A stretch of DNA of 64,000 bases from IMG/VR virus record IMGVR_UViG_3300013800_000004, positions 1-64,000 of that record. One strand, 5' to 3'. This DNA comes from a virus (Duplodnaviria; Heunggongvirae; Uroviricota; Caudoviricetes). The notes beneath the pieces are model-generated. The model saw only the letters and a list, made by a program, of their open reading frames with translations, did no database searches and had not been told where the DNA came from. The stretch's first letter is position 1. Each line of letters begins with the position of its first letter. The position numbers were made by a program, and so were the translations under genes. Below, piece by piece: positions 1 to 34,416 of this stretch.

Positions 1-422
1 GCCAAATCTGGGAAGACGCAGAGCTCGCGGAGTACATCGAGCGCGGCCTGGACTGGTGGAACATGATGCCCCCCAACACGGGAGGCATGTCCCTGGAACA
101 GTTGATCCAACAGAAGCCCGAGTGGCGCACGGCCATCCTCTGGGAGGCGATCACCCACGCCTGCTTCGCCCTCGCCACCAACTGGGTGGCCGATGAGTTC
201 GACTACTCCATCGGAGGAGTGTCCCTCTCCATCGAGAAGAGCTCGAAGTACGAGAGCCTCAAGCAGAACGCTGAGTCTCAGTTCGACAAGGCCGCAGAAG
301 CCAAAGCCCGGACCGTGAAATGGATGCGCGGCCTCCAAATGCCCAAATACGGCATTGGCGTGCGCTCGGCATTTGGACCTGCCGTGGGAAAATCAGTGCT
401 TTCACCGAGGAATTTCCTCTAG
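1..422 (+). CDS. Hypothetical protein, 5'-truncated at the window edge. The frame is open from nt 3 and ends at the stop at 420-422.
   Basis: The frame of ORF 63..422 stays open back to nt 3 (…QIWEDAELAEYIERGLDWW…). Edge-truncated ORFs are missing from the track. Confidence 0.5.
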   Translation, partial: QIWEDAELAEYIERGLDWWNMMPPNTGGMSLEQLIQQKPEWRTAILWEAITHACFALATNWVADEFDYSIGGVSLSIEKSSKYESLKQNAESQFDKAAEAKARTVKWMRGLQMPKYGIGVRSAFGPAVGKSVLSPRNFL

Positions 423-478: not shown

Positions 479-1957
479 ATGGCAGACTTCAGTTGCCCCT
501 GTGGCCAAGAGTTCCCTACAGAGCGGTCCCTTCGGTCGCACAAGAAGGGTTGTGACCGAGCAGTCAAGTTGACCCCGGGCGGTCGGATCTGTGTGTGTGG
601 GTCACGTATCCAGACCACCGAGGTGGTGGGTCACAGGCTGGTGTGCTCTGGGCCACCCAACCCGGACAGCATCATCCTGACCCATCCCGACCCCCCTGAC
701 GACGCCACCTGTGTCTGTGGGAAGCGGCACGGTAGTTCCAGGCACCGTGACTATTGCCCTCAATGGTGGGTGTACCAGCGGGGGTTGCCGGTGAAGTGTG
801 AGGGGTGTGGGGTTGGGTTCCAAGACACCAACGGAAAACGGGTCCATGCCCAAGCATGTGACCTGTGGCAGGCATGGCGGGCGGAACGGGACCGGGTTGA
901 GAAAACCTACCCTTGTCCATCCTGTGGGGAGCTCATGCGGGGGCCACAGTTGGGGCTCCACGTCAACTCATGCCCCGGCACGTTCACCAAAGCAGACTGG
1001 GAGGCATGGAGGAACCGTGGATGGCGTGAGCAGCGGGAGGTTGAGTTCGGGCATCTCCCGGACGATGCCGAGGGGAGGTTGTTCGTCACCTGTAAGCTCT
1101 GTGGCCAGCGGTTCCTTCAACTGGCCGAGCATCTTGTCACGGCCCATGGGACAACCGCTGCCAAGTACCGAAAGGCTACGGGTGGTGAGACTGTAGCGGC
1201 CGAGATGGATGAGCGTCGCAAGGCCACGCTCATGGAGCGGTACGGGGTAGACCACCAAAGCAAAGTGGACGGGTTCTATGCGCGGGTGCTGGCCACCATC
1301 ATCGAACGTCATGGGCCTGAGTATGCGGCTGAGTTCACCGTGAGAAGGGCAGAAACCAACACACTTCGTCACGGGGATGCTCACCCCATTCGACTGGATT
1401 GGGTGCAAGCCAAGGTACGTGCGTCCAACCAGGAATCGTTCGGAACGGACTACTACTTCACCTCGGATGCGTTCAAGGCATGGTCGATGGCCAAGTACGG
1501 GACCCCCAACCCGATGGGCAACCGTGACTATGTGTTGGAGTTGTTCAAGAAGATCAGCCCGTCACGCCCCGGCCCCAACAAGTTCGAGCAACGGGTGTGG
1601 GATTTGGCCCCGTCTCTCATCTTCACTGGCAACTGGGTGTGGTGGAGGTACCTTCCCAAGTTCAGGTCACCTAAGCACCCTGACAGGATCGGTGGGCACA
1701 AGAACCCCGACTTCTTGGTCCCCGGCCCGGACCCCGAGCACCCGTACCGGGGCGTCACCAAGGTGGTTGAAGCCTTCGGTGACTACCATCACGGGAAACG
1801 CCGTACAGGACGGTCGCCCTCCGTGAATGCACAGGAGCTCATCGACGCCTACGCAGACATCGGCATCCAGTGCTTGATTCTGTGGGAGTCCGAGGTGAGA
1901 ACCGACCCTGAGGGTGTGCGGGCGCGGCTGGTGGAGTTCTGCGGACCTACTTGGTAG
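479..1957 (+). CDS. Free-standing nuclease with a tandem CxCG…H…C zinc-finger array (about 6 units) and a C-terminal PD-(D/E)xK Vsr/DUF559-like domain; putative homing endonuclease.
   Basis: ATG at 479 with AAAGG 11 nt upstream. Repeated C-x1-2-C-G-x8-10-H-x3-5-C units run from MADFSCPCGQ…. A MucR/Ros-like finger LAEHLVTAHGTTAAKYR is present. The C-terminus HKNPDFLVP…VVEAFGDYHHG…DAYADIGIQCLILWESEV matches the DUF559/Vsr pattern. It is a paralog of 32206..33468. Confidence 0.6.
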   Translation: MADFSCPCGQEFPTERSLRSHKKGCDRAVKLTPGGRICVCGSRIQTTEVVGHRLVCSGPPNPDSIILTHPDPPDDATCVCGKRHGSSRHRDYCPQWWVYQRGLPVKCEGCGVGFQDTNGKRVHAQACDLWQAWRAERDRVEKTYPCPSCGELMRGPQLGLHVNSCPGTFTKADWEAWRNRGWREQREVEFGHLPDDAEGRLFVTCKLCGQRFLQLAEHLVTAHGTTAAKYRKATGGETVAAEMDERRKATLMERYGVDHQSKVDGFYARVLATIIERHGPEYAAEFTVRRAETNTLRHGDAHPIRLDWVQAKVRASNQESFGTDYYFTSDAFKAWSMAKYGTPNPMGNRDYVLELFKKISPSRPGPNKFEQRVWDLAPSLIFTGNWVWWRYLPKFRSPKHPDRIGGHKNPDFLVPGPDPEHPYRGVTKVVEAFGDYHHGKRRTGRSPSVNAQELIDAYADIGIQCLILWESEVRTDPEGVRARLVEFCGPTW

Positions 1958-3045: not shown

Positions 3046-3528
3046 CTACGTTCTGGCCAAGCGGCTAGCCGTGATGTGTCCCCACTTGGCCACGCCGAGT
3101 GAGTCCTTGTTGCTGACGGGGAACTCCTGGGGGAACCGGGTGAATGTGACTCCAATCTCCCCCTCGAACTCTTCCAGAGTCAGGACATCGTCCCACCAGA
3201 TTTGACGGTGCGGCACGACCTTTTCGAGTTCTTCCGGGGTCATGAAGATCTTGAATCCTCCGTCCTTGGTGGTGAACCACACGTTGCAGGTTTGGCCGGG
3301 GAAGACGGCGTCGGCCTCGTGGCACCCCAGGGAGTAGATGGCCACATTCCCACCCTGGTCCAGGATGGCGTTCACCCGGTTTCGGATGGTCTCGTACTTT
3401 GAGGCGCAAGTGCCACACACCCCATGACGTTCCGCCTGTTTTCCGAGACTGTGGTGGGGGAGGGTGACGGTTCGGAATCCTGATCTGTCACTCCTTTGTC
3501 CGCAGCCCTTGCAGGTTCTCTTCACCAT
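3046..3528 (-). CDS. Hypothetical CxxC protein (160 aa)
   Basis: Start MVKRTCKGCGQ… at 3528, directly preceded by GGGGTAATACACAC (class-1 motif). ATGgTGA overlap with the upstream gene's stop. Confidence 0.5.
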   Translation of the reverse strand: MVKRTCKGCGQRSDRSGFRTVTLPHHSLGKQAERHGVCGTCASKYETIRNRVNAILDQGGNVAIYSLGCHEADAVFPGQTCNVWFTTKDGGFKIFMTPEELEKVVPHRQIWWDDVLTLEEFEGEIGVTFTRFPQEFPVSNKDSLGVAKWGHITASRLART

Positions 3529-4034
3529 GTGTGTATTACCCCTATGGGTGGCACCCAGGTACCCAACCACCAATCGGGCTGGTTCCGTTTCCACTTGCCC
3601 AGTCGCACCCCCCGCTTGGTTTGGTAGTACCTCTGGTACGCCATCACCGGGTCGGGGCCTTGGTGTTCCACGGGCATGGCTTGTGCGAACGGGGTCAACC
3701 CACTGTGTGGAAGGTTCGGGACGTTCTCCGCGAGGTCACGGAGGATGGCACTGGTGGCGTGGACCCTCATGTACCGTGCGGCGTACTCCCGGCACAGTTC
3801 CCGGCCCAGTGCTGCAAGCCACAGGTAGTTCTCTCGGGATGCTCTTGCCCACACCGCGCACGGGTGGTTGACGTGTGTGGGGCGGTAGGGGGCGGTCCCT
3901 CCTGTGAGGTGGTGGGCGGTGCAGAGTAGCTGTGCGGACTCCACCACCATCTTCACGACGTGGGCGTCACAGTGCCACTTTGCGGATTGGGAGGGGTTGG
4001 AGTGTAGGACGAAGATGTTCACCCCTATGGCGTC
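3522..4034 (-). CDS. Conserved phage hypothetical protein, Cys/His-rich. The start is uncertain (GTG near 4034 or a further-upstream start in the same open frame).
   Basis: Protein-like segment …NIFVLHSNPSQSAKWHCDAHVVKMVVESAQLLCTAHH…YQRYYQTKRG…. The upstream part of ORF 3522..4418 in this frame is low-complexity R/G/P junk. Confidence 0.45.
   Translation of the reverse strand, partial: DAIGVNIFVLHSNPSQSAKWHCDAHVVKMVVESAQLLCTAHHLTGGTAPYRPTHVNHPCAVWARASRENYLWLAALGRELCREYAARYMRVHATSAILRDLAENVPNLPHSGLTPFAQAMPVEHQGPDPVMAYQRYYQTKRGVRLGKWKRNQPDWWLGTWVPPIGVIHTW
3529..3542 (-). promoter_or_regulatory. Class-1 variant GGGGTAATACACAC abutting the ATG of 3046..3528
   Basis: Motif recurrence. Confidence 0.35.
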
Positions 4035-4418
4035 GTCGGGCGCGTGATGTAGAGGTTCCAGACCGCCTCGTCTGTCCAGAACTCCTGCACCTTCCCCCGC
4101 CCTCCGGGACCGGTGCCCGACGGGTGACGGACCTTGGCCGAGTAGCCCAGGGAGAAGAGCTCCTCTTTGGCAGCGAGGAGGACGAGCTCCTCGCCGGAGC
4201 CCATGTCCAGTTCGTAGGACGTGCTCCAGGGGTTCTTCCCCCCCCACCAACTTGAGCATGAAGGCGTCGACCAGGGTCGAGGCTGCGGCCTGCACCCGGG
4301 CCTTTTCGGCCTCGCGGGCGACCCTCTTGGCCTCCTGCGCGGCCATCTCGGTAGCCTTGTGCTCTGCCAACCACTGTGTGGCGGGGATGCGCGGGGCGGG
4401 CTGGTCGGTCGTCGTCAC
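4025..4418 (-). CDS. Hypothetical protein (about 130 aa) that needs a 1-nt frameshift at a G8 run to be read through. Either a sequencing indel or programmed slippage.
   Basis: GTG start at 4418 with GAGGTA 6 nt upstream. Frame A reads MTTTDQPAP…AFMLKLVGG up to the G8 run (minus strand, about 4238-4245). A shifted frame continues protein-like: GKNPWSTSYELDMGSGEELVLLAAKEELFSLGYSAKVRHPSGTGPGGRGKVQEFWTDEAVWNLYITRPTTP* with TAG at about 4025-4027. Confidence 0.4.
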
Positions 4419-4427
4419 GGTCGTACC

Positions 4428-4799
4428 TCAATGCACAGCGGTGTGGAGGAACCATCCCGGCGGGTCCTTCGGACGGCGCTCGGGGGGAAGTGAAGCCACG
4501 AGCTCGGCCAGTGCGGCGTCGTAGGCGGTGGTGTCGGGGAGGCTCGTGAGGCGGATCACCCGCTCCTTGTAGTCGTAGCCGTTGCGGTCCGAGAGGTGGG
4601 GGATCTCCGATCCTTTGACGTAGATGATCACCCCGTCACGGGCGCTCCCCATGGGGGCGGCGAGCTCTACGACACACCCACACGGACCCTCCTCGGGACG
4701 GTCGTTCTCCTCGTCCCAACCCGTCACCGGGAGCCCTGTGGCGACCCCGGTGGGGTCGTAGAACCCGTAGACGAAACGGACCACGGTGTAGGTGCCCAT
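4428..4799 (-). CDS. Hypothetical protein, paralog family A (YDPTG…PPGWFLHT)
   Basis: ATG at 4799, immediately preceded by GGGCGTAATACAACC. Paralog of 7329..7667. Confidence 0.55.
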   Translation of the reverse strand: MGTYTVVRFVYGFYDPTGVATGLPVTGWDEENDRPEEGPCGCVVELAAPMGSARDGVIIYVKGSEIPHLSDRNGYDYKERVIRLTSLPDTTAYDAALAELVASLPPERRPKDPPGWFLHTAVH

Positions 4800-4816
4800 G
4801 GTTGTATTACGCCCAG
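4800..4816 (-). promoter_or_regulatory. Class-1 motif GGGCGTAATACAACC abutting the ATG of 4428..4799
   Basis: Same motif, inverted partner of the 5063 copy in a divergent intergenic region. Confidence 0.4.
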
Positions 4817-5062
4817 GGCGGGTGTCTCACCCCACGTTCACGAACTTGCCTCTGCACCGGATGCAGTCGTAGTGCTCACCCTCGTACAGCCACGGGAGGG
4901 CGTAGACGTTCTCATCCTCCTTGGTGCCATCCAGGCACTTGTAGCAGCACGGCCCCGCGTCGAGGATGAAGCCCTGACGGTCCGTGGGAGGTTGTGGGTC
5001 GGGTGCCGGTGGTGCCTGTGTGTTGTCGCTCATGTGAAGAGTACGCCCGAGGAACTCCCAAC

Positions 5063-5077
5063 GGGCGTAATACACCC
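5063..5077 (+). promoter_or_regulatory. Class-1 motif GGGCGTAATACACCC directly abutting the ATG (leaderless geometry)
   Basis: One of 13 or more copies of GGGCGTAA(N7)ATG or GGGCGTAA(N20-40 with SD)ATG. Confidence 0.4.
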
Positions 5078-5392
5078 ATGACGATGAAGCGTGCAGGAAC
5101 CAAGCTCCCTGTGGTGTGGATCACCAAGCACGCGCTCACCCGTGGGGAGGGCGTGTACCGGGTCGAGAACGCCGTGCGCCAGTACGGCGACACCATCTAC
5201 GTCGAGCACGGCCACCGCGACAGCTTCTTCCGGGGGAACGAGTGGCACGCCACCGAGGAGGCCGCGAAGGCCCGCGTGCGGACGATGGTGGCATCCCGCC
5301 GGAAGGCCATGGCCATCGCGGACAAGAAGCTCCAGTCCATCCTGGACACCCTCGACACGACCGAGTGGCCGGTGAAGATGAGGCCCCGGTGA
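5078..5392 (+). CDS. Hypothetical protein, paralog family B (LPVVWITKHAL…)
   Basis: ATG at about 5078 (or 5084), directly after GGGCGTAATACACCC. ORF 4994..5392 starts from a GTG inside the motif. Paralog of 7713..8063, and the divergent partner of 4428..4799. Confidence 0.55.
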   Translation: MTMKRAGTKLPVVWITKHALTRGEGVYRVENAVRQYGDTIYVEHGHRDSFFRGNEWHATEEAAKARVRTMVASRRKAMAIADKKLQSILDTLDTTEWPVKMRPR

Positions 5393-5787
5393 GACGCACC
5401 ATCGAAGTCGGGGACGAGGTGGTCTACACCCCGGCGTGGCTCCACTCCACGGGGCAGACCCGAGACGACATCGCCCGCTACCGCGGTGTGGTGAAGACCA
5501 TCGAGGTGGTCGGAGAGCAGGTCCTGGCCCGCGTGGGTAGCTGGACCCTGGACGGGATGCTGGTGACGGAGGACGAGTTGGGGACCCCTTGGGAGCCTCT
5601 CGTCAACATCCTGAACATCGCCCGTCCCATGACCGCCCGCGCCATCGACATCCCTCTCTGGGCGGCTGCCATGATGGCTGGTGGGAAGATCGACCATCAC
5701 ACCCGTGAGGCGATCGACCGAGACCGTGCTCGGATGAAGGAGTTGGACGACAAGATCCTCCTGGAGTACCGGACGGAAAGGAAGTAG
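5389..5787 (+). CDS. Hypothetical protein (132 aa)
   Basis: GTG start overlaps the previous stop (GTGA). The N-terminal 90 aa of ORF 5116..5787 is an R/G-rich out-of-frame overlap with 5078..5392. Confidence 0.5.
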   Translation: MRRTIEVGDEVVYTPAWLHSTGQTRDDIARYRGVVKTIEVVGEQVLARVGSWTLDGMLVTEDELGTPWEPLVNILNIARPMTARAIDIPLWAAAMMAGGKIDHHTREAIDRDRARMKELDDKILLEYRTERK

Positions 5788-5792
5788 CCCCA

Positions 5793-6065
5793 ATGCCCCA
5801 CTACCGAGTGACTCGCCCTGAGGGCTACGGCCCCGGCACCCCTGGGTACACCGACCTGGGTGCCCGCCAAGGGTACTACACCGACGCGGACACCCCCAAC
5901 GCCGCACGGACCGTGATCGACACCCGCCTCCGGGCGGACAAGTGGTCGAGCTACCGGCCCGGCGAGCCCCTCGATGTCCAGCCCTGGGGCCGGGGCACGG
6001 GTGAGCCCGATGGCAAGCCCGACATGTCCCCGCTCGGGTACAACAGGGCGCATGGAATCCCCTGA
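5793..6065 (+). CDS. Hypothetical protein (90 aa)
   Basis: ATG with GGAAAGGAAG upstream. Confidence 0.5.
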   Translation: MPHYRVTRPEGYGPGTPGYTDLGARQGYYTDADTPNAARTVIDTRLRADKWSSYRPGEPLDVQPWGRGTGEPDGKPDMSPLGYNRAHGIP

Positions 6066-6312
6066 CCCGGCACCCGCCCCCCTCACCTACTACTGCGACT
6101 CCATGAGGCACCTGATCTGTACTCCTTATTCTGTCCCTCATTTGCACATCATGGCGCGTAGGTTAGGGATTGGCCGTCACTGGTTCCACAACTCCAAGGA
6201 CCACCTCCACTACGACATCCCCAAGCGCCGGATCGCAGAGATCCAGGCCCGGTGTACCGTGGTGAGCCCCAGGGACATCATCAAGATCATCAAGGGCACG
6301 TTCCCGGCGTAG
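6052..6312 (+). CDS. DUF4031-like small protein (…LHIMARRLGIGRHWFHNSKDHLHYDIPKRRIAEI…)
   Basis: Internal ATG of ORF 5974..6312 overlapping the previous stop. The motif resembles the actinophage DUF4031 family, recalled from memory and not searched. Confidence 0.4.
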   Translation: MESPDPAPAPLTYYCDSMRHLICTPYSVPHLHIMARRLGIGRHWFHNSKDHLHYDIPKRRIAEIQARCTVVSPRDIIKIIKGTFPA

Positions 6313-6321
6313 GGTCCGGTC

Positions 6322-6894
6322 ATGAAGATCACCCAGGTGTTCGAGCCCTACAACCACAACGACATCCAGAGCGAGCGCATCGCCCGACGGTTGGGACTCA
6401 CGTTCCACATCACCCTGGACGGTGACACGGTGGAGAACCGGGGGTACCTGAGCAAGGCTCGTGATGCGACCGACCCGGAGTTGGCGATGTGGGCCAAGCT
6501 GGTCCCACCGCAGTGGGTGCCCAAGGGTCGCGGCTACCTGGGAGACCCGGTCCCGGCGGATCGGGCAGAGATGGACGAGATCGAGCACGCTCTTGTGGTG
6601 CCCGGCCCCATCACCATGAACCCCATGGACTACGCGATGCTCCGCAAGCGGGGTCGCGATCACATGGACTTCTGCACGGACGAGAGCCTGTTGCGGCGTG
6701 GGTTCCAGGGGACGTGGAAGAACGAGTCGCCCGTGTGGGTCTCGCGGTCCATCCCCGTGGGCTACTACTGGCGGGGGGTGTACGAGCACCCGAAGCTCCC
6801 CACCCTCGTAGAGGGAGAGACCCTGAACATCCCGGACGTGGACGAGGCCCTTGTTGCCACCATCACGACGGAGCTTCGTCCGTTCCAGGTGTAG
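6322..6894 (+). CDS. Hypothetical protein (190 aa)
   Basis: ATG preceded by GGCGTAGGGTCCGGTC with no SD, so possibly leaderless. Confidence 0.55.
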   Translation: MKITQVFEPYNHNDIQSERIARRLGLTFHITLDGDTVENRGYLSKARDATDPELAMWAKLVPPQWVPKGRGYLGDPVPADRAEMDEIEHALVVPGPITMNPMDYAMLRKRGRDHMDFCTDESLLRRGFQGTWKNESPVWVSRSIPVGYYWRGVYEHPKLPTLVEGETLNIPDVDEALVATITTELRPFQV

Positions 6895-6900
6895 GTGCAG

Positions 6901-7356
6901 CTACTTGGGAACCGTAGCCCACCATGCGTCGATGCGGGGGCGGACTACGGTCATGAAGTGGTCTCCCTCCGCACGTTGAGCGGCCTCCACCTCTCGGCGC
7001 ATCCGGGCGGACTTCTCCGGGTCGGGCTCGACCTCGTACCCGTAGGTCCCCCCGAACAGTCGCACGGGATTCTCCGTGGGGCTGGCCAGCGCCCAGTGTC
7101 GGAGGGACTGGTACAGATCCTCCCTCCAAGGTCCACCGAGCTTCGAGAGGGTCTCGGAGATGCCGTCGTACACCGCAGTGTCGAAGCAGAGCTCACGGAC
7201 ATCCCCGCCTGTGAGGGCGCCGCTGTTCCACCCAGCACGGATGGCTGCGAGCCTCTGGTCGAGGGTGGCCCCGGGTGCCGCCACACCAAGGAGCATGGTC
7301 CACAGGTAGCTGCGAGCCGTCGCCACGGTCAGCCGCAGTCCGTGTGGAGGATCCAC
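6901..7356 (-). CDS. Hypothetical protein (151 aa; alternative start MLLGV at about 7296)
   Basis: Protein-like composition. Convergent with 6322..6894. Confidence 0.45.
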   Translation of the reverse strand: MDPPHGLRLTVATARSYLWTMLLGVAAPGATLDQRLAAIRAGWNSGALTGGDVRELCFDTAVYDGISETLSKLGGPWREDLYQSLRHWALASPTENPVRLFGGTYGYEVEPDPEKSARMRREVEAAQRAEGDHFMTVVRPRIDAWWATVPK

Positions 7357-7667
7357 TTGGGCGGGGTCTTGGGACGACTCGCCTCGGGGACGTACTCCTC
7401 CAGGAAGTCCTTGAGGGTGGCGACGAAGGGCTCCGTCGGGGGGAGGTCATTGATCGTGAACACCGGGTGGTCGAACTCGTAGCCGTCCCGGTCGTTGAGG
7501 AGACGGACCTCGGACGCCGTGGCGAAGATGAGGGAGCCCGAGTCCCCGCCCATGCACTCGACAGCCTCGACAAGGACATCATCGTACTCGTCGTGGGCGA
7601 GACCGAAGGCCTCGCCCGTCGGGTCGTGGTACCCGAACACCCAGCGAACAGTGAGTGAAACGCTCAT
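7329..7667 (-). CDS. Hypothetical protein, paralog family A (MSVSLTVRWVFGYHDPTG…KWILHTDCG)
   Basis: Internal Met of ORF 7329..8084, directly preceded by GGAGGCGTAATACGCAC. The longer N-terminus overlaps gene 7713..8063 and is junk-like. Confidence 0.55.
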   Translation of the reverse strand: MSVSLTVRWVFGYHDPTGEAFGLAHDEYDDVLVEAVECMGGDSGSLIFATASEVRLLNDRDGYEFDHPVFTINDLPPTEPFVATLKDFLEEYVPEASRPKTPPKWILHTDCG

Positions 7668-7683
7668 GTGCGTATTACGCCTC
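7668..7683 (-). promoter_or_regulatory. Class-1 motif GGAGGCGTAATACGCAC abutting the ATG of 7329..7667
   Basis: Motif recurrence. Confidence 0.4.
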
Positions 7684-7697
7684 CTGTGTGTTGTCTT

Positions 7698-7712
7698 GTG
7701 CGTAAATCCTCC
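7698..7712 (+). promoter_or_regulatory. Class-1 variant GTGCGTAAATCCTCC abutting the ATG of 7713..8063
   Basis: GCGTAA plus 7 nt plus ATG. Confidence 0.35.
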
Positions 7713-8063
7713 ATGACCGACACCAAGCCTGCACCCGTGAAGTCCCAACCCCAAGCCGAACCGACCCTCCCCAAGGTCTGGATCACCAAGTACGCCCTCA
7801 CCACGGGCGTGTACACGGCTGAGAACGTCAGGCTTTGCGGGGGCGAAATCTCCCGGACGATTGCGGTCCCCCAAGACACAACGCTTCACCTTGTGTTCTA
7901 TGTGCACAAGCCCCACTGGCACGAGACGGAGGACGAGGCTCGGGCTCAGGTGCAGAAGATGGTCAACGCGGCGCTGAAGTCCCTCAGGAAGAAGCGGGAC
8001 AAGCTCGACGCCGTGATGGCCAGCGTCCAGGGGCCGGTCCCCACGAAGCCCTGGGGCGCCTAG
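7713..8063 (+). CDS. Hypothetical protein, paralog family B (LPKVWITKYAL…)
   Basis: ATG preceded by GTGCGTAAATCCTCC. ORF 7668 starts from a GTG inside the neighbouring motif. Confidence 0.55.
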   Translation: MTDTKPAPVKSQPQAEPTLPKVWITKYALTTGVYTAENVRLCGGEISRTIAVPQDTTLHLVFYVHKPHWHETEDEARAQVQKMVNAALKSLRKKRDKLDAVMASVQGPVPTKPWGA

Positions 8064-8140
8064 TAGATCCTGTGGGCTTCGCACAGAGGCCCCACGGACC
8101 CCGCAGGCCCACCCTAACCCCTCTATGGGTTGGGGTGGGT

Positions 8141-8992
8141 ATGTCCCTGTCTTGCTCTCGGGTTGCTGCCCGCCATCTCATCCGTGTCGCCGCACGGGAT
8201 GCTTGCCGCGTCACCTTTCGCACCCGTACAGCATCCGTGGACCTCACGGAGCGTGTTCTCGTCGCGGCTGCGGAGGGTGCGTTGATTCCCGATGACGGGA
8301 GTCCCATGCGGACCGCGGGGCTGATGGCACTGCCCCGTAAGCTGGCAGAGTTCGCCAAGGCCGTGAAGCGGTACCCGAACCTGTGGGAGAAGGTCAAGGA
8401 GTTCGTCGGGGTCGATAGCCTCGCGGACATTCCCGGTCGGGTGAAGGAACTGGCGAAAGAGGGCTACGCAGCCCTCAAGAAGGTGTTGGCCAGTGCTTTC
8501 GATGCGTGGCCCCTGAAGCTGTACACTCTGCCAGAGAGTGCTGTCTTCTCGGTCAACAAGCTCCTTGAGAAGCTCATGGCGAGGTTCCCGCAGTTCGGCA
8601 AATGGCTGGAGACCAGCGTGAAGCCCCGCGTGGACCAGTTCGACAAGTGGTTGTCCGAGCACCTCCCGGTGATCAGGAAGGTGTTGATGACGGCCATCTA
8701 CGTCTGGATCTGGTTGAACGTGGTGGAGTTCGAGTGGGACATGAAGGGGCTCCTGGGAGCCGCCACAGGTCAGTTGACTCTCTCGTCCCTTCTGGCGAGT
8801 CTGCCAGGGTCCGCCCTCGGAGCCATGATGAACGGGTTGGGGCTGGGCACATTCACCCTCCTCCCTGCCGCCACGGCGGCGAGGGTGCTATTCTTGATGT
8901 CCAAGCGGTACCTGACCTGGACTGGTAGGGGGTTCACTGTCGAGTGGGAGAAGCTCTCCAGTGATTTCGGGGTAGCCCCTGGGGTGCCCTAA
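8141..8992 (+). CDS. Putative membrane protein (283 aa) with C-terminal hydrophobic segments.
   Basis: ATG at 8141; the upstream part of ORF 7835..8992 is R/G/P junk. TM-like stretches VIRKVLMTAIYVWIWLNVV and LASLPGSALGAMMNGLGLGTFTLLPAA. Confidence 0.5.
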   Translation: MSLSCSRVAARHLIRVAARDACRVTFRTRTASVDLTERVLVAAAEGALIPDDGSPMRTAGLMALPRKLAEFAKAVKRYPNLWEKVKEFVGVDSLADIPGRVKELAKEGYAALKKVLASAFDAWPLKLYTLPESAVFSVNKLLEKLMARFPQFGKWLETSVKPRVDQFDKWLSEHLPVIRKVLMTAIYVWIWLNVVEFEWDMKGLLGAATGQLTLSSLLASLPGSALGAMMNGLGLGTFTLLPAATAARVLFLMSKRYLTWTGRGFTVEWEKLSSDFGVAPGVP

Positions 8993-9016
8993 TCTATCTA
9001 TGGGGTGCCGCCAGTT

Positions 9017-9616
9017 ATGGCATCCATGAGATTTTCGGGCCTTGCCCTCAAGATGGCGTCGACCCGTGTGGCTGACCGCTACCTACGACGGGAGCGCACG
9101 GCTCGCATGCTTTTGTCGTTCGGCGTGCGGGACTTTGAGAAGCTGAACCGTGCGGGCAACCAGTTTGCCGTGGTGTCGGCCTACCGCTCAGAACTTGGCA
9201 AGCACGCCAACAAGGAGCGCAACGGAGCCCTGGTGGGCGACATTCAGCGGATGGGGTACCGGAGGTTCGTCCCGCAGAAGTCGTCGTGGACAGACGCCTC
9301 TGGGACACACCCTGAGGCATCACTCCTGGTCCCCGGGATGTCTTTTGACGATGCCGTGCATCTGATGAAGAAGTACAACCAGGACGCCATCGTGTACAAG
9401 GACCCGTCAGGGACCATCGGGATCTACTCCAAGGATCACACCGCGGTGATGGCTTTCGACGAGGGCAAGGACATCGCAGTGGATGTGTCCCAAGACGAGG
9501 ACTTGTACTCCCGGGGGAGGTCATTCTCGATGGGGCTTCGCTTGGTAGACGACCAAACATTCCGGTGGTCGGGGAAGCCCCTCACACTAGGGGATCTGAT
9601 CGGCCAGATGGCCTGA
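9017..9616 (+). CDS. Hypothetical protein (199 aa)
   Basis: ATG at 9017 (MASMRF…). Upstream CTATGGGGTGCCGCCAGTT. Confidence 0.5.
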   Translation: MASMRFSGLALKMASTRVADRYLRRERTARMLLSFGVRDFEKLNRAGNQFAVVSAYRSELGKHANKERNGALVGDIQRMGYRRFVPQKSSWTDASGTHPEASLLVPGMSFDDAVHLMKKYNQDAIVYKDPSGTIGIYSKDHTAVMAFDEGKDIAVDVSQDEDLYSRGRSFSMGLRLVDDQTFRWSGKPLTLGDLIGQMA

Positions 9617-9620
9617 CCGG

Positions 9621-9851
9621 TCAGTTGGGCGAGCCCTGGCCTTCGGAGGGCTCGCCCGTGACGGGCTTCGCCAGCATTGCCCCAAGAGTGGCAACCCGAA
9701 GCTCCTCGGGGTTGTTGGCTGCGACGGTGGGCCCCTTGGCCTTGAACTGCACCGACAGGTTACGGGACTGAAGGACCGCGCCCCACTTGCCCAACGGGTT
9801 GTTGGTCACGTCCACAGCCACCTTCTTGCACTTTCCACCGCCCTTGCTCAT
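9621..9851 (-). CDS. Small basic hypothetical protein (76 aa, MSKGGGKCKK…)
   Basis: ATG with AGGAGAGAGGA SD and GGTGTAATACAG motif about 20 nt upstream. Confidence 0.45.
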   Translation of the reverse strand: MSKGGGKCKKVAVDVTNNPLGKWGAVLQSRNLSVQFKAKGPTVAANNPEELRVATLGAMLAKPVTGEPSEGQGSPN

Positions 9852-9871
9852 GATGAATCCTCTCTCCTGAT

Positions 9872-9883
9872 CTGTATTACACC
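9872..9883 (-). promoter_or_regulatory. Class-1 variant GGTGTAATACAG, 20 nt upstream of the ATG of 9621..9851 (with SD)
   Basis: Motif recurrence. Confidence 0.35.
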
Positions 9884-10035
9884 AACGGTAGGGCCCCGTC
9901 AACTTCCAAATCCTCGTCACCCTCATCTACGGGCCGAAGGGGTTGGGGGGAGAGCGGGAATGGCGGAAGCTGTTCACGACTACAAGCACCCGAGATGCTC
10001 TCGCGGCTCAACTGACTCAGGGGCAATTTCCAACG

Positions 10036-26852: not shown

Positions 26853-29800
26853 ATGCCCAGAGACATCACAGGTGGATACGCGCCCCCCGGCGTGTACACG
26901 CAGACCTTCTTCGGTGCACCTCCAACGGTGCCCGGGGTTCCCCCCCTGGTCCCCCTTTACATCGGGACGGGGTCGGAGATCCTGGTCCAGACCAACCTCC
27001 CGGTGGTCCGTGGGAGTTCGTCGTCCGTCGATCAGCAGATCGTCAACGAGGACGAGACGGGGCGCGCGGTGACCAACATCGCCCCCTCGGGTCTTGTCAC
27101 CCTGGGGGCCTTTGACGGCACCTTCAACCGTTTCCAGGTCAGGAACTTCCCCCTGGTCAACGGGGACGGGTCGGGGACGACCGCGGTGGACACCTCGGCG
27201 GTGTCTGTCACCCTCAACGGCGACCCTGTGGTGGTCCTTGGGATTGACGGTGCCAAGGGCATCGTTGAAATCTCGGAGTACCCGACGGCGACAGATGTCG
27301 TGCTGGTCACCTACTACTTCGACCGCACGGACACCCTGGTGACGGACACTGTGTCCGCACAGGTGACGCCAACGGCTGCGATCCTCAACGGCCGCACCGG
27401 TCAGAACTTCACCTTCACGTCGGGCACCAACCAGTTCATGCTCTCGGTGGACGGCCTCCCCGAGGTGACAGTCACCCTCCCCATCTCGACGGTGACGGGC
27501 GCGGTGGTGGTTGCGACCATCAACGGGACGGCGGGCATCGGGTCGCTGGTGGCAAGCACCTTTGTGGACAACCTCGGTCAGACCTGTGTGCGCCTCACGG
27601 CAGACAAGTCCATCGTGGTCGGTGCGGGCTCCGCCAACGATGTGATCGGGTTCGTGGCCAACGATGCCACCTCGCGGAACGCCACGTTCGTGGTGTTCAA
27701 CCACCCCATCGTGAACGGCAGCGGCGGTGGTGTTACCACCACCAACCCGCTGGACGTGCGGGTGCTGGTGGACTCCGTCCAGGTGACCCCGACGGCGGTC
27801 AACGGTCGTACAGGATCGGTCACTCTCCCGTTTGCGCCCAAGCGCGGGAGCGTGGTGACGATCCAGTACTACTTCAACTCCTGGCAGGACACGTTCGACT
27901 ACCTTGCCAACACGGGCGTCACGGCGATCACCCGGGCGGGCATCACGGCGACATCGAACGGGGCGGGCCTGTTCATCCAGGGTGCGGACTACATCCTCAA
28001 GAACGACACCATCGTGTGGGGCACCTCGGTGCTCGTGAACACGGGGCTGCACACGGAGGGTTCGACTGCCTTCGGTAGCACCCAGGTGACGGCGAGCTTG
28101 GTGGACAACCAAGCGTTCATGGCGGAGTGTTCCCGGGTGCTCACCACCTCGGGCACGATCACCACGGAGTCCAAGACTCAGTTCCAGCTTCCGTTCCAGC
28201 CCACAACGGGCAACGGTCGGAACTCCCCCTTGGGCACGACCAACTACCTCACTGTGTCCAACGGCCGCATGGACCTCCCGACGGACCAGCCCGACCTTGT
28301 GGTGGCCTACTGGGGATTCGGCGTCCAGGATGCCTACCAGCGCGGCCCCGTCACGGTGACCAAGGTGGACAGCGCCACCAGCACGATCACCCTGGCTGGG
28401 GATGTGCCCGTGGGCGCGACGGTGTACGCGACCTTCTACTACAACACCCTGACGGACCAAGCGTTCATCGGGTCGTCCCGTGGGTACACCCTCACCTGTG
28501 CGGCATCAGGCACCTCGGGTGCGGGTACGTACACGATCACGGACGGGTTGAACCTCCCGGTCTATGGCGTGACCTTCCTGGGCAAGGGAGCAGCCCTGAA
28601 CACCATCGAGGTGATGTTCCCGAGTGGTTCGGAGTTCGTCTCCGATGCCCGGCTGGAGAACGGGGCCCCCACCCTGGAGACGGTGACCGTCCAGTTTGCG
28701 TCCACAGACGAGACTCCGGCCAAGTTCACCGTTCCGGGCGCGAGCCCGTACAACACAGTGTCGGGCCAGTCCTCGAACCTTCGGGTGACCATCGACGCCG
28801 TCGCTGGCACCACGGGCGCGGCGGGTGGCATCAACCTCACGGCCCCCACGGGTTCGAGCCGGGGTGGTGCATTCGCATCCATGCTGGGTGACGAGGCCCC
28901 CTACACGGCGGCTTCCGGTGAGGTCACCTTCCCCATCACGGCGGGGGTGGACGACACCGTCTCGGTCCTCGTGGACGGGGTGTCCATCACGGCAACCGCC
29001 GCAGCGGGTGGGGCTCAGGACCTCACGGCTTTCCGTGATGCCATCAACACCGCGGTGCTGGCCACCGACCCGTACCTCACCGGGGCAGGCAGCTTCCCCA
29101 GTGGTTACACGGTCGTGGCGAGCGAGTACGACCGCCTCAACCTCCACTACACGGGGTCGGTCGGGGGTGCTTCGGGCAACCAAGTTCTCACCTTCACCCC
29201 CGCGGCGTACACGACCGTGGCCCTCTTGGCCACCGAGATCAACACCCAGCTTGCCACCATCAATGGCCTGGGCGGCCTCGGCGCCTCGGTGACCTGTGCC
29301 GCCACGGCAGACAGCAAGCTCCGGTTCACCATGGCCCTCGCCCTGGCGATGAGCACCCTCACCGCGGTGGGCCTCCCGACGGCGGGTGACACGGTCACCC
29401 TCAACGGCAAGGTGTACACGTTCACGTCGCCCCTTGGAGGCGCAGACGGAGACGTCCTCATCGGTCTGTCGGCCAGCGCGTGCCTCGACAACCTCATCGC
29501 TGCGATCACCCTGGGTGCAGGCTCGGGTGTGACATACGCGGCTGCGACCACACTCCACCCGACGATCACCGCGGAGGCCGGTCCTGGCGACACCCTGCGG
29601 GCATACGCCAAGAGCCGGGGCTCGGCGGGCAACCTCCTCACCACGGCGGCATCCATCACTGGCCCCTCGGTGTGGGGATGGACGGGTCTCACCCTCGCGG
29701 GTGGTGACGACGCAGGGTTCCTGGAGTTCATCAACGATGCCACCCCGGCGCGGGACTTCGCGATCATCGCGGGCATCGACGCGGGTGCTGCAACCCTGGG

Positions 29801-32129
29801 TGTCCAGACCAAGCTGGTCAACGGCCCCATCGCCAGCGTGTACACGGTCACGGCGGCATCGGGACGCAAGCCCTACGACCGCCTCGCCCTCCGCAACCGG
29901 GTGTTCCCTGGCAGCGGCAGCGTAGCCCCGTGGAGCGCCCTGTCTCAGATGGGAATCCAGTCCCAGGGTGGCAACGGTGCCGCTCTTGCGGGTCTGCCCT
30001 CGGGCCTCCTCGGTGAGGGTTCCTGGGGTGGTGGGGTCTACTCCCCGACTCTCCTTGGTTCGGTGGGCTGGAGTGGTGGGCAGGCGACCGGCTACGTAGA
30101 CGCACGGGACGGTCAGCCCAACGTGGTGTTCTACGACGGGTCGGGCACCGAGGCAGCCAACAACGTCCTCAAGCTCACCCTGAACGGGTCGCTGGTGACG
30201 GTGGTGTTCTCCGCCACCGACGTGGGCAAGGACACGGCCCTCGGCCCTGCATCTGTGTCCGGGTCGGTCCTTGGGGTCATCAACGCGGCGCTCCCCTCGG
30301 GTGTGGTCGCTGCCCAGGAGGGCGCATCCATCCGGTTCTACGCGACGGGCACCGAGTACTTCTCGGAGTCGGCCCAGTTCATCGTGGGTGACGGCTCGGC
30401 TAACGAGACCCTGGGTCTCACCTCGGGTGACGTGGCAGCAGCCACCCCGATCACGGCCAAGCAACTGGCTTCGACCCTGACGAGCCACATCGCCACGGGG
30501 GACTTCGCGGCGTGGATGTTCCTCCCGTCCACCTCGTCCGCGGGCTACTTCTCGGCCAAGGCTCTCGCCACCACGGTGACCGGAGCCACGGGCGATGAGT
30601 ACCTGTCTCTCCAGAGCAAGACCCTCGGGACTGCGTCGAGCTTCTTGTTCGCCAACGCCACCACCAACGACGCCCTCCGCACGAGGTCGGGTCTGGGTGT
30701 GGTTTCGGGTGATGGTAGCTCGGGGGAGCCCGCACTCAACGGGTTCTTCGTCACCTCGTCGGATCCCACCAGCGGATCGGGCAGCGCGGACACCTCGGTG
30801 TTCAACGCGGGGGTCGGTCAAGACGGGTTCGTGGGTCAGACCTACGTGGACGACGTGACGGGTCTGACCTTCACGGTCCTCCCCCGTGCGGGCGGGCTGT
30901 CGTACCCCACGGGTGCAACGTCCACCCTGTCGTTCCGGGTGTCCACCAACTTCGTGACGGATGCCAACATCCCCACGCTGGCCATCCCCGGTCTGGAGCT
31001 CGTGGTGGCCAACACCGTGGGTGTCCCGGTGGGGGACACGGCCCTGGTGGAGACCTTCAAGCGCGGAGGGTCGGAGCCCAACATCGGGGAGGTGTACTAC
31101 GTCTCGTACAACTACCTGAAGACGGACTTCTCCCCCAAGCTGTTCTCCCGTCTCTCGGACGTGGTGAACGAGTATGGGCCGGTGTCCCCGGACAATCCCC
31201 TGTCCCTCGCCGCGTACTTCGCGTTCCTCAACGGTTCGTCGGTCATCGGGTGCCAGCAGGTGCCCAAGACCCCGGGCCTGTCCACGGCGTCCGAAGCCGC
31301 ATACACGGCAGCCATCGACCTGTCCTCGGGGCCGTCGCTCCCTGGCTTTGTGTCCCCCGCAGTCCTGGTGGTCCTCACCCCGGCCACGGAGAACCTCGCC
31401 AAGTACATGACGATCCACTGCGACGTGCAGAGCTCGATTCGCTACAAGGCGGAGCGCACGGCGATCTTCGGGTTCGGTTCGGGCACCCGCACCGATCAAG
31501 CCCTCGCCATCGCGGCAGTGGCGGGAGACACCAGGGTCCGGTTCGTGTACCCTGACATCGCATCCGTGTCCCTCACCGACGTACTGGGCGTCACCCGGAC
31601 CTACTTGGTGGACGGTCGGTACCCGGCGGCAGCAGTCGCCGCGGCCACCACGGCGTCCACCATCGACCCGGCCACCCCGTGGGAGTCGCGTCAGATCGTC
31701 GGGTTCACGGCCCTCAACCGCCGCCTCGACGCGGTCACGGCCAACCAACTGGCAGTGGGCGGTATCACGGTGCTGGAGAACCGGCCCCCGTTCATCCGCA
31801 TCCGCCACGGCGTCACCTCGGACGTGACCAACATCCTCACCAAGACCCCGACCGTGATCCAGATCGCGGACGAGATCCAGAAGAGGGTGCGGGCAGTCTG
31901 CTCCCCGTTCATCGGGGCCAAGTTCCTCCCGCAGATTCTCGGCCAGATCGAAGGCCGCCTGTCGGAGATGTTCAAGCAGGCCGTCGCAGAACAGATCATC
32001 ACCACGTTCACCGGCATCACCGTGAACGTGGACCCGACGGACCCGACGGCGGTCATCGTGGAGGCGTACTACCAGCCCGTCTGGCCGCTCCTCTACGTGC
32101 AGATTTCGCTCCGCGTCAGCGCACAGTAG
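26853..32129 (+). CDS. Giant (1758 aa) T/G/S/V-rich structural protein, possibly a tail sheath with large insertions
   Basis: ATG with GGAG upstream. N-terminal …GGYAPPGVYTQTFF resembles the sheath PGVY motif. C-terminus …ITVNVDPTDPTAVIVEAYYQPVWPLLYVQISLRV. It lies directly upstream of the tube, chaperone and tape-measure genes. The antisense ORFs 26748..28460 and 28506..32318 are artefacts. Confidence 0.6.
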   Translation: MPRDITGGYAPPGVYTQTFFGAPPTVPGVPPLVPLYIGTGSEILVQTNLPVVRGSSSSVDQQIVNEDETGRAVTNIAPSGLVTLGAFDGTFNRFQVRNFPLVNGDGSGTTAVDTSAVSVTLNGDPVVVLGIDGAKGIVEISEYPTATDVVLVTYYFDRTDTLVTDTVSAQVTPTAAILNGRTGQNFTFTSGTNQFMLSVDGLPEVTVTLPISTVTGAVVVATINGTAGIGSLVASTFVDNLGQTCVRLTADKSIVVGAGSANDVIGFVANDATSRNATFVVFNHPIVNGSGGGVTTTNPLDVRVLVDSVQVTPTAVNGRTGSVTLPFAPKRGSVVTIQYYFNSWQDTFDYLANTGVTAITRAGITATSNGAGLFIQGADYILKNDTIVWGTSVLVNTGLHTEGSTAFGSTQVTASLVDNQAFMAECSRVLTTSGTITTESKTQFQLPFQPTTGNGRNSPLGTTNYLTVSNGRMDLPTDQPDLVVAYWGFGVQDAYQRGPVTVTKVDSATSTITLAGDVPVGATVYATFYYNTLTDQAFIGSSRGYTLTCAASGTSGAGTYTITDGLNLPVYGVTFLGKGAALNTIEVMFPSGSEFVSDARLENGAPTLETVTVQFASTDETPAKFTVPGASPYNTVSGQSSNLRVTIDAVAGTTGAAGGINLTAPTGSSRGGAFASMLGDEAPYTAASGEVTFPITAGVDDTVSVLVDGVSITATAAAGGAQDLTAFRDAINTAVLATDPYLTGAGSFPSGYTVVASEYDRLNLHYTGSVGGASGNQVLTFTPAAYTTVALLATEINTQLATINGLGGLGASVTCAATADSKLRFTMALALAMSTLTAVGLPTAGDTVTLNGKVYTFTSPLGGADGDVLIGLSASACLDNLIAAITLGAGSGVTYAAATTLHPTITAEAGPGDTLRAYAKSRGSAGNLLTTAASITGPSVWGWTGLTLAGGDDAGFLEFINDATPARDFAIIAGIDAGAATLGVQTKLVNGPIASVYTVTAASGRKPYDRLALRNRVFPGSGSVAPWSALSQMGIQSQGGNGAALAGLPSGLLGEGSWGGGVYSPTLLGSVGWSGGQATGYVDARDGQPNVVFYDGSGTEAANNVLKLTLNGSLVTVVFSATDVGKDTALGPASVSGSVLGVINAALPSGVVAAQEGASIRFYATGTEYFSESAQFIVGDGSANETLGLTSGDVAAATPITAKQLASTLTSHIATGDFAAWMFLPSTSSAGYFSAKALATTVTGATGDEYLSLQSKTLGTASSFLFANATTNDALRTRSGLGVVSGDGSSGEPALNGFFVTSSDPTSGSGSADTSVFNAGVGQDGFVGQTYVDDVTGLTFTVLPRAGGLSYPTGATSTLSFRVSTNFVTDANIPTLAIPGLELVVANTVGVPVGDTALVETFKRGGSEPNIGEVYYVSYNYLKTDFSPKLFSRLSDVVNEYGPVSPDNPLSLAAYFAFLNGSSVIGCQQVPKTPGLSTASEAAYTAAIDLSSGPSLPGFVSPAVLVVLTPATENLAKYMTIHCDVQSSIRYKAERTAIFGFGSGTRTDQALAIAAVAGDTRVRFVYPDIASVSLTDVLGVTRTYLVDGRYPAAAVAAATTASTIDPATPWESRQIVGFTALNRRLDAVTANQLAVGGITVLENRPPFIRIRHGVTSDVTNILTKTPTVIQIADEIQKRVRAVCSPFIGAKFLPQILGQIEGRLSEMFKQAVAEQIITTFTGITVNVDPTDPTAVIVEAYYQPVWPLLYVQISLRVSAQ

Positions 32130-32205
32130 TGAAATCACTGGGGTTTCTGGTAACCCAGAGCTCCAGTTGACAGGGTGAGTGGGTTCATGGTAAGGTTCTA
32201 CTACC

Positions 32206-33468: not shown

Positions 33469-33567
33469 CCCACCCCCGGTTCCCCTCCTATACTCCAGGC
33501 ATGGACAACAGCACCGCGTCCTTGCGGGTGCGGCGGTAGCAACCCTATCGGCCCGGAGAAGTAGACC

Positions 33568-34407
33568 ATGCCCAACCAAGACCGCAGCCCCGCCAACGGT
33601 TCGCAAGGATCCAGCTACTTGTACGACTACGGAACCACTCCGAACACCCGCACCGCGGTGTCTCAGAAGGTCCGTATTCTCGCGCCGGTCTTTGGTGCGA
33701 CGACCCCGGCCCTCTACCAGATGGGTGTGGTGAGCTCGTTCAACCCGACCAGCAGCCGCACGGTGGAAGAGATCCGAGGCATTGGCTACGGCGACATGAT
33801 CGCGGAGCTCGTGCCCAGCATCACCGGGGCGACCACGGCGAGCATCGAGCGTGCACTTCTGTACCTCTCGAACCTCTGCCAAGCCTTGGGCTACGCGGGT
33901 GGTGTGGATGGCCCGGTGCGTTCCCTCGCGCACCACCGCTGGCCGTTCGACATCGAGATGCAGCTGGTGTTCTCGTCCCTCGCGGACATGGACCTGGGTG
34001 TCGCCAACAAGGGCACCAGCGCACCGACAGGTGCGGCGAGCACGGGCTTCGGACAGGGCGTCCGTCCCGTCCGCTACCCGAACCTCGCCACGGGACAGCC
34101 CACCACGGGCCCATACCCAGGCACAGGGACACTGGGTCACAGTGCCATCATCACCATGTACGAGGCTTGCTGGCTGACCTCCTGGGGTGTCTCGGGTTAC
34201 TCCAAGGATTCGGGCCAGATCATGGAGACCGGCGAGTGCATGGTGTCCGACGTTCACGACTTCGCCAGCACCTACGGCGAGTTCCTGCCTGGAGGTAACG
34301 ATCCAAGTGCTGGACAACTCGGATCAATCCGGTACGGTGCTGCTTCGCGCTACAGCACGGGTGACAGCCTCACCTCGGGTGGCTCATCCCCGGGCGTCAC
34401 GATCTGA
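33568..34407 (+). CDS. Putative tail tube protein, assigned from position only (279 aa)
   Basis: ATG with GGAG SD. It lies between the sheath-like gene and the chaperone-like genes. No motif-level support. Confidence 0.45.
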   Translation: MPNQDRSPANGSQGSSYLYDYGTTPNTRTAVSQKVRILAPVFGATTPALYQMGVVSSFNPTSSRTVEEIRGIGYGDMIAELVPSITGATTASIERALLYLSNLCQALGYAGGVDGPVRSLAHHRWPFDIEMQLVFSSLADMDLGVANKGTSAPTGAASTGFGQGVRPVRYPNLATGQPTTGPYPGTGTLGHSAIITMYEACWLTSWGVSGYSKDSGQIMETGECMVSDVHDFASTYGEFLPGGNDPSAGQLGSIRYGAASRYSTGDSLTSGGSSPGVTI

Positions 34408-34416
34408 AATCAAGAC

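Follow-up and report, generated by a model that had tools for sequence, protein, structure and literature searches.

The first 64,000 nucleotides of the IMG/VR virus record IMGVR_UViG_3300013800_000004 (Caudoviricetes; hereafter the window) carry two open reading frames (ORFs), ORF1 (479..1957, plus strand, 492 amino acids (aa)) and ORF2 (32206..33468, plus strand, 420 aa), which are probably two unrelated, free-standing genes of the homing-endonuclease type, in which zinc fingers and helical repeats would recognize a DNA site and a C-terminal domain of the Vsr fold would cleave it. ORF1 combines a zinc-finger array, DUF7487 repeats, and a predicted Vsr-like nuclease of the EDxHD/Hef type, and ORF2 joins four zinc modules, a helical middle region, and a second type of predicted Vsr-fold nuclease. 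For both proteins, we infer finger-mediated DNA binding, cleavage at target sites, and homing. The family of the catalytic domain, the free-standing way of life, and hairpins at the start site, such as that described below, are already known; apparently new are the joining of the nuclease to long arrays in which C2HC and Ros/MucR fingers vary in number, the ORF2-type nuclease lineage, and the abundance of such genes, misleadingly annotated or not annotated at all, in jumbo-phage metagenomes.

The frame of ORF1 is open from 320 to 1957, and the ATG at 479 agrees with the starts of its homologues, of which 74 were found; an exact-sequence look-up of ORF1 returned no contig. Its zinc-finger array (494..1183, plus strand) comprises six Cys/His units, namely five C2HC fingers starting at aa 6, 38, 78, 107, and 146, with the pattern CxC or CxxC ... 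H-x3-C, and one Ros/MucR-like C2H2 finger at aa 205-222 (CKLCGQRFLQLAEHLVTAH), whose helix continues to about aa 235. Across homologues of 35-66% identity, the ligands are retained and the intervening residues vary. The Pfam family ROS_MUCR (PF05443) matches ORF1 at E 0.0017 (18.9 bits, below the Pfam cut-off of 25.4) and 12 ORF1-family members at E<=0.01, and in the PDB, a profile of the family finds arrays of C2H2 fingers, both designed and natural, such as Aart (2.4e-6) and CTCF (1.6e-4). Foldseek relates the AlphaFold model of ORF1 (mean predicted local distance difference test score (pLDDT) of 85.8) to Ros (2jsp) with a probability of 0.80. Finger number differs widely within the family (0 in 19 members, 2 in 39, 4 in 4, 6 in 3, and 7 in 8); judged from these sequences, the N-terminal composition of the family is modular, and ORF1 appears to have lost the first of the seven fingers of its relatives.

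For ORF2, 104 homologues were found, and the AlphaFold model has a mean pLDDT of 91.0. The zinc modules (32230..32754, plus strand) are four in number: a C2H2 finger at aa 9-28, two Ros/MucR-like fingers at aa 61-79 and 165-183, and a C4 ribbon at aa 124-148, with ligands at least 90% conserved in the family. ROS_MUCR matches aa 56-107 above the cut-off of 25.4 (E 5e-13, 49.5 bits), the family profile matches the Ros structure 2jsp at 2.3e-9, and Foldseek matches the model to CTCF finger arrays at E ~1e-3. In both models, beta-beta-alpha elements are assigned at the fingers (DSSP), and the unit counts of the two proteins, scored by regular expression, are reached in 0 of 2000 residue shuffles (means ~0.5, maximum 3). 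By sequence and model, both proteins thus carry real arrays of beta-beta-alpha zinc fingers, with zinc binding predicted. The initial annotation had counted 5-6 units over about 300 aa in each protein; the count stands for ORF1, whereas ORF2 has four units, and the arrays span ~235 and ~185 residues. All the peptide strings it quoted from the two proteins are present, and of the zf-C2H2/ROS_MUCR matches it anticipated, that to ROS_MUCR was obtained for ORF2 but remained sub-threshold for ORF1.

Downstream of its fingers, ORF1 contains helical repeats assigned to the Pfam family DUF7487 (1196..1558, plus strand; E 4e-10, 40.4 bits, above the cut-off of 27), consisting of about five copies of a ~25-aa 'T...RYGV' unit, and aa 240-360 are all-helical in the model. 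DUF7487 is matched by 67 of 73 ORF1-family members (best 1.5e-86), and no mention of it was found in the papers searched. The middle region of ORF2 (32803..33159, plus strand; aa 200-318) is likewise helical in the secondary structure of the model but differs from the DUF7487 region; its length varies among homologues, and it is the most divergent part between near-identical genomes (52% identity at 32868..33067 against contig L006).

The nuclease domain of ORF1 (1571..1948, plus strand) is predicted to have a Vsr-like fold. Across 70 sequences of the family, the motifs N409-P-D411-F, V-E431-x-F-G434-D-F/Y-W/H-H438, and L-x-x-W469-E470 are, together with E370, invariant or nearly so, the invariant residues being E370, D411 (in NPDF), E431, G434, H438 (in GDxxH), and W469-E470. 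These motifs presumably parallel the 'PDF ... GCFWH ... VWE' of Escherichia coli Vsr. The nuclease domain of ORF2 (33163..33459, plus strand) has conserved E324, D342, E353, G356, H359, D380, and K383, and across the 70 ORF1 and 102 ORF2 homologues compared, conservation of the candidate catalytic residues is complete or reaches at least 90%. The top Foldseek matches of the ORF1 model are 3hrl and 3r3p, the latter (I-Bth0305I) being the best structural match, and those of the ORF2 model are Vsr itself (1vsr with probability 0.99 and a template modeling (TM) score of 0.48; 1cw0 with probability 0.90), followed by RAP-domain proteins and R2 endonucleases, which have Vsr-like PD-(D/E)xK folds. 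The models accordingly give both catalytic domains the predicted Vsr endonuclease fold and place them in that fold group. The nuclease profile of ORF1 also aligns (hhalign 96%, E 4e-9) with that of an endonuclease that a split intein carries in relatives, and this endonuclease itself scores 25.7 bits with Pfam DUF559 (cut-off 20.6). The ORF2 profile is unrelated to it (hhalign 1.8%); a sequence-level bridge to DUF559-type nucleases therefore appears to exist for ORF1 only.

The order of residues can be compared as well. I-Bth0305I (PDB 3r3p) has the EDxHD residues E170, D196, N208, H213, and D222 (Taylor et al. 2011, PMC3239194), and an ordered series of E, D, H, and an acidic residue occurs in ORF1 (E370, D411, H438, and D/E456, the last in 54 of 70 sequences) and in ORF2 (E324, D342, H359, and D380), equivalence having been judged by order, spacing, and the 'PDF...GxFWH...WE' resemblance to Vsr. 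At the level of fold and profile, ORF1 can be placed with the EDxHD/Hef lineage, and ORF2 is predicted to be a separate Vsr-fold nuclease that has no family assignment at the sequence level. Weak PHROGs matches are to families labeled 'homing endonuclease' or 'HNH endonuclease' (E 6e-5 to 1e-3); the latter label, also attached to phage matches, was rejected as loose annotation because the HNH motif is absent.

The two proteins, which the initial annotation had called paralogous copies, share a common architecture but appear not to be paralogues. BLASTP aligns ORF1 and ORF2 in the MucR-finger region only (E 4e-7), and hhalign finds their nuclease profiles unrelated (probability 2%), so that paralogy was rejected beyond the MucR finger; both the nuclease subfamilies and the middle modules are different.

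Evidence of mobility is clearest at the ORF2 site. A 100%-identical ORF2 protein is encoded on three other contigs at the same place, and 37 viral contigs encoding the 279-aa gene downstream of ORF2 were surveyed over 2-7 kb of upstream sequence. An ORF2-type gene lies directly upstream of the 279-aa gene in three of them (L006, L007, and L014) and at another upstream position within that range in eight; 23 of the 34 judgeable contigs have no ORF2-like gene there, the other three of the 37 being too short upstream to judge. In L042 (~74% nucleotide identity), the site is empty, with a spacer of 169 bp in place of the 1414 bp of the window (32118..33531), and the large upstream ORF of that contig ends 192 bp ahead of the downstream gene. 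In L007, 676 bp encoding the nuclease half have been lost and a 251-aa finger-only ORF is kept (L007 6232..6987; 77% identity), which may be a product of decay or a DNA-binding protein that has been retained. The window and L006 are ~100% identical over 5 kb upstream and again from 33668 onward, whereas identity inside ORF2 falls to 52-97%; junction alignments show that the insert at this site is almost exactly the ORF. Within the ~100% identical 5 kb, two patches of the upstream 1758-aa gene (29068..29267 and 30068..30267) have 86.5% and 95.5% identity to L006. Full, truncated, and empty alleles together with allele replacement are what one would expect of a homing-endonuclease gene. Genes of both the ORF2 and the ORF1 type look mobile, given their patchy distribution and, for ORF2, a divergence out of step with that of the flanks, which bears out the initial description of both as free-standing insertions; neither behaves as a gene conserved in synteny.

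The same observations bear on a different explanation, namely that the proteins are transcription regulators of the Ros/MucR family whose C-terminal domain is not an active nuclease. The ROS_MUCR match would suit this explanation, as would the retention of the zinc-finger half alone in L007 and two of the source names of ORF2 homologues ('MucR family transcriptional regulator' and 'predicted transcriptional regulator'); the other name, where any is given, is 'hypothetical protein'. However, the ROS_MUCR match spans only 35-50 residues, the C-terminal part has a Vsr-type fold with acidic and histidine residues conserved across 70-100 homologues, and the distribution is that of a mobile gene, so that we regard a regulatory role of this kind as highly improbable. 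The breadth of the ORF2 family can be gauged from a search of 1.84 billion representative proteins with its profile, in which 112 clusters match at E<=1e-30 and 672 clusters at E<=1e-10, including full-length relatives, stand-alone nuclease domains, and larger fusions.

A perfect 13-bp hairpin (32179..32215, plus strand) covers the start of ORF2, its 3' arm holding the start ATG (32206..32208) and its loop an AAGG. The RNA fold has a free energy of -34.2 kcal/mol (z -5.1), and 0 of 200 shuffles were as stable. The hairpin is also found in L006, in L007, and in the empty site of L042 (about 6852..6895), with base changes that preserve the pairing (window CAUGG/CCAUG, L042 CGUAG/CUACG; compensatory changes), and the surrounding region in occupied and empty sites gives -34 to -41 kcal/mol (z -5 to -6). 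In occupied sites, the 3' arm contains the ATG of ORF2, where L042 has ACG. These features suggest that translation of ORF2 is probably held down by sequestration of its start codon. Hairpins lie upstream of 15 of the 16 endonuclease ORFs described by Dassa et al. 2009 (PMC2677866). The hairpin, lying downstream of the 1758-aa gene, is kept with or without ORF2, and its candidate roles in the empty site are those of a terminator, an RNA stability element, or an endonuclease target. Over the ORF1 start codon, a hairpin search gave nothing better than shuffles (z -1.4).

ORF1 lies directly downstream of a conserved gene, the last 139 codons of which are in the window (3..422, plus strand). A 30%-identical homologue in Tunturiibacter phage Tunturi_5 is annotated as 'head-tail connector', and neither Pfam nor PHROGs settled the identity of this gene. 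The ORF1 site was surveyed in 65 viral contigs carrying the conserved gene at 52-83% identity: an ORF1-family gene, only 25-43% identical to ORF1, occurs within ~1.5 kb downstream in about 30 of them, and about 33 have none. Tandem ORF1-family copies are found at two loci (L070 and L103); in L044, the conserved gene is followed by unrelated genes and no ORF1-type gene, and in L005, the ORF1 homologue is ~5 kb away from the conserved gene. In Tunturi_5, the ORF1 and ORF2 sites are both unoccupied.

The conserved gene is itself a target of mobile elements in relatives. In L004 (6989..9330), L097, L100, L102, and L105, it is fractured after '...NWVADEF' by a split intein carrying a free-standing 297-aa gene that encodes one MucR-type finger and a DUF559 nuclease (motif 'EVDGCYWHSCPQCG'); L103 and L104 have intein pieces without the 297-aa endonuclease gene, and the window allele is uninterrupted. 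In L004, the conserved gene starts with a further intein-like C-terminal piece. The split intein with its endonuclease gene is the arrangement described by Dassa et al. 2009 (PMC2677866), in which Vsr-like endonuclease genes lie between split-intein halves ('fractured genes'), in introns, or free-standing. The combination of finger and Vsr-type nuclease is therefore found in an unambiguous homing context.

This context also helps to weigh the view that ORF1 and ORF2 are nucleases serving the phage, whether in degrading or nicking host DNA, in excluding competing phages, or as a nickase in repair or processing, with the fingers targeting sites. In favor of this view, conservation of the catalytic residues is high, roughly half of the diverged relatives have an ORF1-type gene at this one position, and Vsr itself is a repair enzyme that nicks DNA (Taylor et al. 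2011, PMC3239194). Nevertheless, patchy presence, truncated and empty alleles, and allele replacement are unexpected for a gene that the phage needs, the MucR-finger and Vsr-type architecture lies inside the split intein of relatives, and marker exclusion is a known by-product of homing endonucleases; we consider a phage-serving function unlikely.

Several points weigh against the interpretation of ORF1 and ORF2 as homing-endonuclease-type genes. The Foldseek E-values are weak (0.1-0.7 for the top ORF1 matches and 0.02 for ORF2 against 1vsr), and neither nuclease domain is significant by sequence against Pfam, NCBIfam, or the PDB in searches with the full proteins and 18 isolated domains of each family, nor do sequence searches with either protein reach I-Bth0305I or Vsr significantly. 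For the ORF1 nuclease, the best Vsr entries of the PDB appear at E 1.1-1.5 and 3r3p was not found; for the ORF2 nuclease, PDB and Pfam searches returned nothing. The C-terminal DUF559/Vsr matches that the initial annotation had predicted are absent from both proteins, with the Pfam gathering thresholds (PF04480/PF03852) unreached and 0 matches even at E<=1, so that support comes from fold searches and, for ORF1, one profile-profile bridge. At the ORF1 site, a clean nucleotide-level empty site could not be defined among the relatives because the downstream region is not syntenic; of the comparison proposed with relatives lacking the insertion, the part concerning ORF2 was borne out by L042, and that concerning ORF1 was not. 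The presence of ORF1-type genes at one position in roughly half of the widely diverged relatives would also be compatible with an old gene that is inherited vertically and often lost. Finally, ORF1 and its closest relatives (P0001 and partly P0002) have 'SVNA' in place of the family-common 'FDHE' at aa 448-451, which could affect activity if a replaced residue is catalytic.

The last of these points raises the prospect that the genes, mainly ORF1, are decaying or domesticated remnants of homing endonucleases that no longer cut. The substitution follows the catalytic histidine in the ORF1 clade, and degeneration is a normal stage of the homing cycle, of which L007 provides one case. The segment at aa 448-451, however, also varies in other, intact ORF1-family clades (P0007, P0008, and P0013) and is therefore probably not essential, and the core residues of ORF1 (E370, D411, E431, H438, and W469-E470) are intact in a frame of full length, which makes a remnant quite improbable. 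The interpretation as a zinc-finger array fused to a Vsr/DUF559-type restriction-fold nuclease, as first proposed, is upheld by the models, the Foldseek matches, and the ORF1 profile bridge. The structure predictions suggested at that stage yielded confident models with finger elements and a Vsr-type fold, and neither of the observations named as speaking against the proposal, a lack of nuclease and finger folds or universal synteny, was made.

Homing endonucleases mix catalytic cores with assorted DNA-binding modules. For ORF1 and ORF2 as homing-endonuclease-type genes, we propose that the N-terminal zinc modules and the helical repeat region would bind a long, asymmetric DNA site, recognition involving the C2HC fingers, the Ros/MucR-type finger, and DUF7487 in ORF1 and the zinc modules and the helical middle region in ORF2. 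The C-terminal Vsr-fold nuclease would then cut the genome of a related phage lacking the gene during co-infection, and repair by recombination with the genome that bears the gene would carry a copy of it, with some flanking sequence, into the empty site. The hairpin over the ORF2 start codon may restrain translation, as for other phage endonuclease genes.

Among described systems, the EDxHD/Vsr-like endonucleases are closest. The structure of I-Bth0305I was solved by Taylor et al. 2011 (PMC3239194), who named the EDxHD family, described its NUMOD-type N-terminal repeats, and placed the phage Hef enzymes in the Vsr-like family; nrdB is stated to be cut by the Hef enzyme of phage U5 (Edgell et al. 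2010, PMC2988022). ORF1 and ORF2 share with this group a predicted C-terminal Vsr-fold nuclease with a putatively equivalent, ordered series of E...D...H...acidic residues, a multidomain build of N-terminal DNA-binding modules and helical repeats, free-standing or split-intein phage contexts, and the start hairpin, and both appear to share its mobile context and sporadic distribution. In contrast, described EDxHD members have NUMOD-type helical motifs and no reported zinc-finger array, whereas ORF1 has six fingers, and the ORF2 nuclease has no sequence-level relation to the ORF1 nuclease or to DUF559. With tblastn against phage genomes, ORF1 aa 240-488 matches LR745208.1 (1e-15) and 'homing endonuclease' genes of Kuttervirus phages (Ackermannviridae), and its DUF7487 part matches F-LimVIII of Dickeya phage LIMEstone1, which is classed as 'Hef-like' (PMC3296691). 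These Hef-like genes, of a kind found in T4-like and Ackermannviridae phages, resemble ORF1 over aa 242-484, comprising the DUF7487 repeats and the nuclease, at 23-28% identity; they are likewise free-standing between structural genes, the copy of Salmonella phage Mutine lying between tail tube and tail sheath. Identity is low, however, the E-values are modest (1e-4 to 1e-15), and the zinc-finger half of ORF1 is unmatched in F-LimVIII and the Mutine gene.

Other comparisons concern the finger half. Ros/MucR regulators (2jsp) are small, single-finger proteins, whereas a finger of their type, present once in ORF1 and twice in ORF2, is here one module of several fused to a nuclease. Engineered zinc-finger nucleases (ZFNs; C2H2 array and FokI) likewise join tandem fingers to a restriction-fold nuclease, and the label of a natural ZFN given in the initial annotation holds as an analogy of architecture; ORF1 and ORF2 differ in having C2HC and Ros/MucR fingers and one C4 ribbon, irregularly spaced at 29-59 residues, in carrying extra non-finger repeats of DNA-binding type, and in using a Vsr-type rather than a FokI-type nuclease. 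The proteins of R2 non-long-terminal-repeat (non-LTR) retrotransposons, with weak Foldseek matches to both models (probability 0.08-0.63), similarly combine zinc fingers with a PD-(D/E)xK-type endonuclease in a natural mobile element, but are eukaryotic, ~1000 aa long, and contain a reverse transcriptase. Literature searches for MucR with homing endonuclease, and for zinc finger with Vsr-like and phage, returned no description of the architecture, and zinc-finger arrays are unreported in Dassa et al. 2009 (PMC2677866), Taylor et al. 2011 (PMC3239194), and Edgell et al. 2010 (PMC2988022). The earlier statement that these genes form no described homing-endonuclease family can therefore be kept for the zinc-finger front end, but not for the catalytic part, which appears to fall with the Vsr-like/EDxHD and Hef enzymes.

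If the fingers set specificity, the two families would offer natural examples of finger number and type evolving with target sites, their public annotation as MucR-family regulators would be corrected, and the small Vsr-type cleavage domains might be useful in nuclease engineering, as Taylor et al. 2011 (PMC3239194) have proposed for the domain of I-Bth0305I. A more far-reaching idea, which we put forward as speculative and rather doubtful, is that these genes represent a large natural reservoir of modular zinc-finger nucleases, in which finger number and identity (0 to 7 in the ORF1 family) would set target length and specificity in a readable and recombinable manner, with the compact Vsr-type domains as new cleavage modules and the ORF2-type nuclease as a distinct, as yet uncatalogued homing-endonuclease lineage. 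On this view, jumbo phages would routinely recognize DNA by means of tandem, eukaryote-like zinc-finger arrays.

The window (62.7% G+C) appears to derive from an uncultivated jumbo phage. Megablast of the ORF1 and ORF2 regions against 50,697 phage records gave no match and therefore no close cultured relative. At the protein level, the relatives of its structural genes are IMG/VR contigs of 200-600 kb and the uncultured phage LR745208.1 (485 kb), with Tunturi_5 (309 kb) as a distant relative. G+C at third codon positions is 0.71 in ORF1, 0.75 in ORF2, and 0.71 in a GIY-YIG gene, at the low end of the range across the window. Downstream of ORF1, ~7 kb of the window (3047..10000) is replaced by ~0.6 kb in the 85%-identical relative L004 (12784..13363), an exchange that indicates a mosaic genome in this region. 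Scans for sigma-70 promoters and terminators around ORF1 and ORF2 were uninformative.

Of the neighbors of ORF2, the upstream 1758-aa gene (26853..32129, plus strand) had been described as sheath-like; its protein has one weak C-terminal Pfam match (Phage_sheath_1C, E 0.0017) and no PHROG match, and the label is tentative. The name of a tube gene given to the downstream 279-aa gene is unsupported, its cultured-phage homologue being annotated only as 'virion structural protein'; the gene preceding that homologue in Tunturi_5 is annotated as 'DNA ejection protein'.

Further endonuclease genes lie nearby, and the structural-gene regions of uncultivated jumbo phages appear to be densely colonized by several classes of selfish nuclease genes. 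A GIY-YIG gene of the homing-endonuclease type (34480..35250, plus strand, 256 aa) sits between the 279-aa gene and a 382-aa gene; it is present in L002 and absent in the near-identical L001 and L006, which have ~180 bp in place of ~990 bp, and L008, L009, and L013 have related copies at this position. A second GIY-YIG gene (43404..44240, minus strand, 278 aa), with a long run of NUMOD3-like 'LSPEHRAK' repeats, is also called in L001 (Pfam GIY-YIG). Upstream of the first GIY-YIG gene, directly after the stop of the 279-aa gene, there is a G+C-rich 14-bp hairpin (34417..34450), and the region around it (34405..34500) folds at -34.3 kcal/mol (z -3.5).

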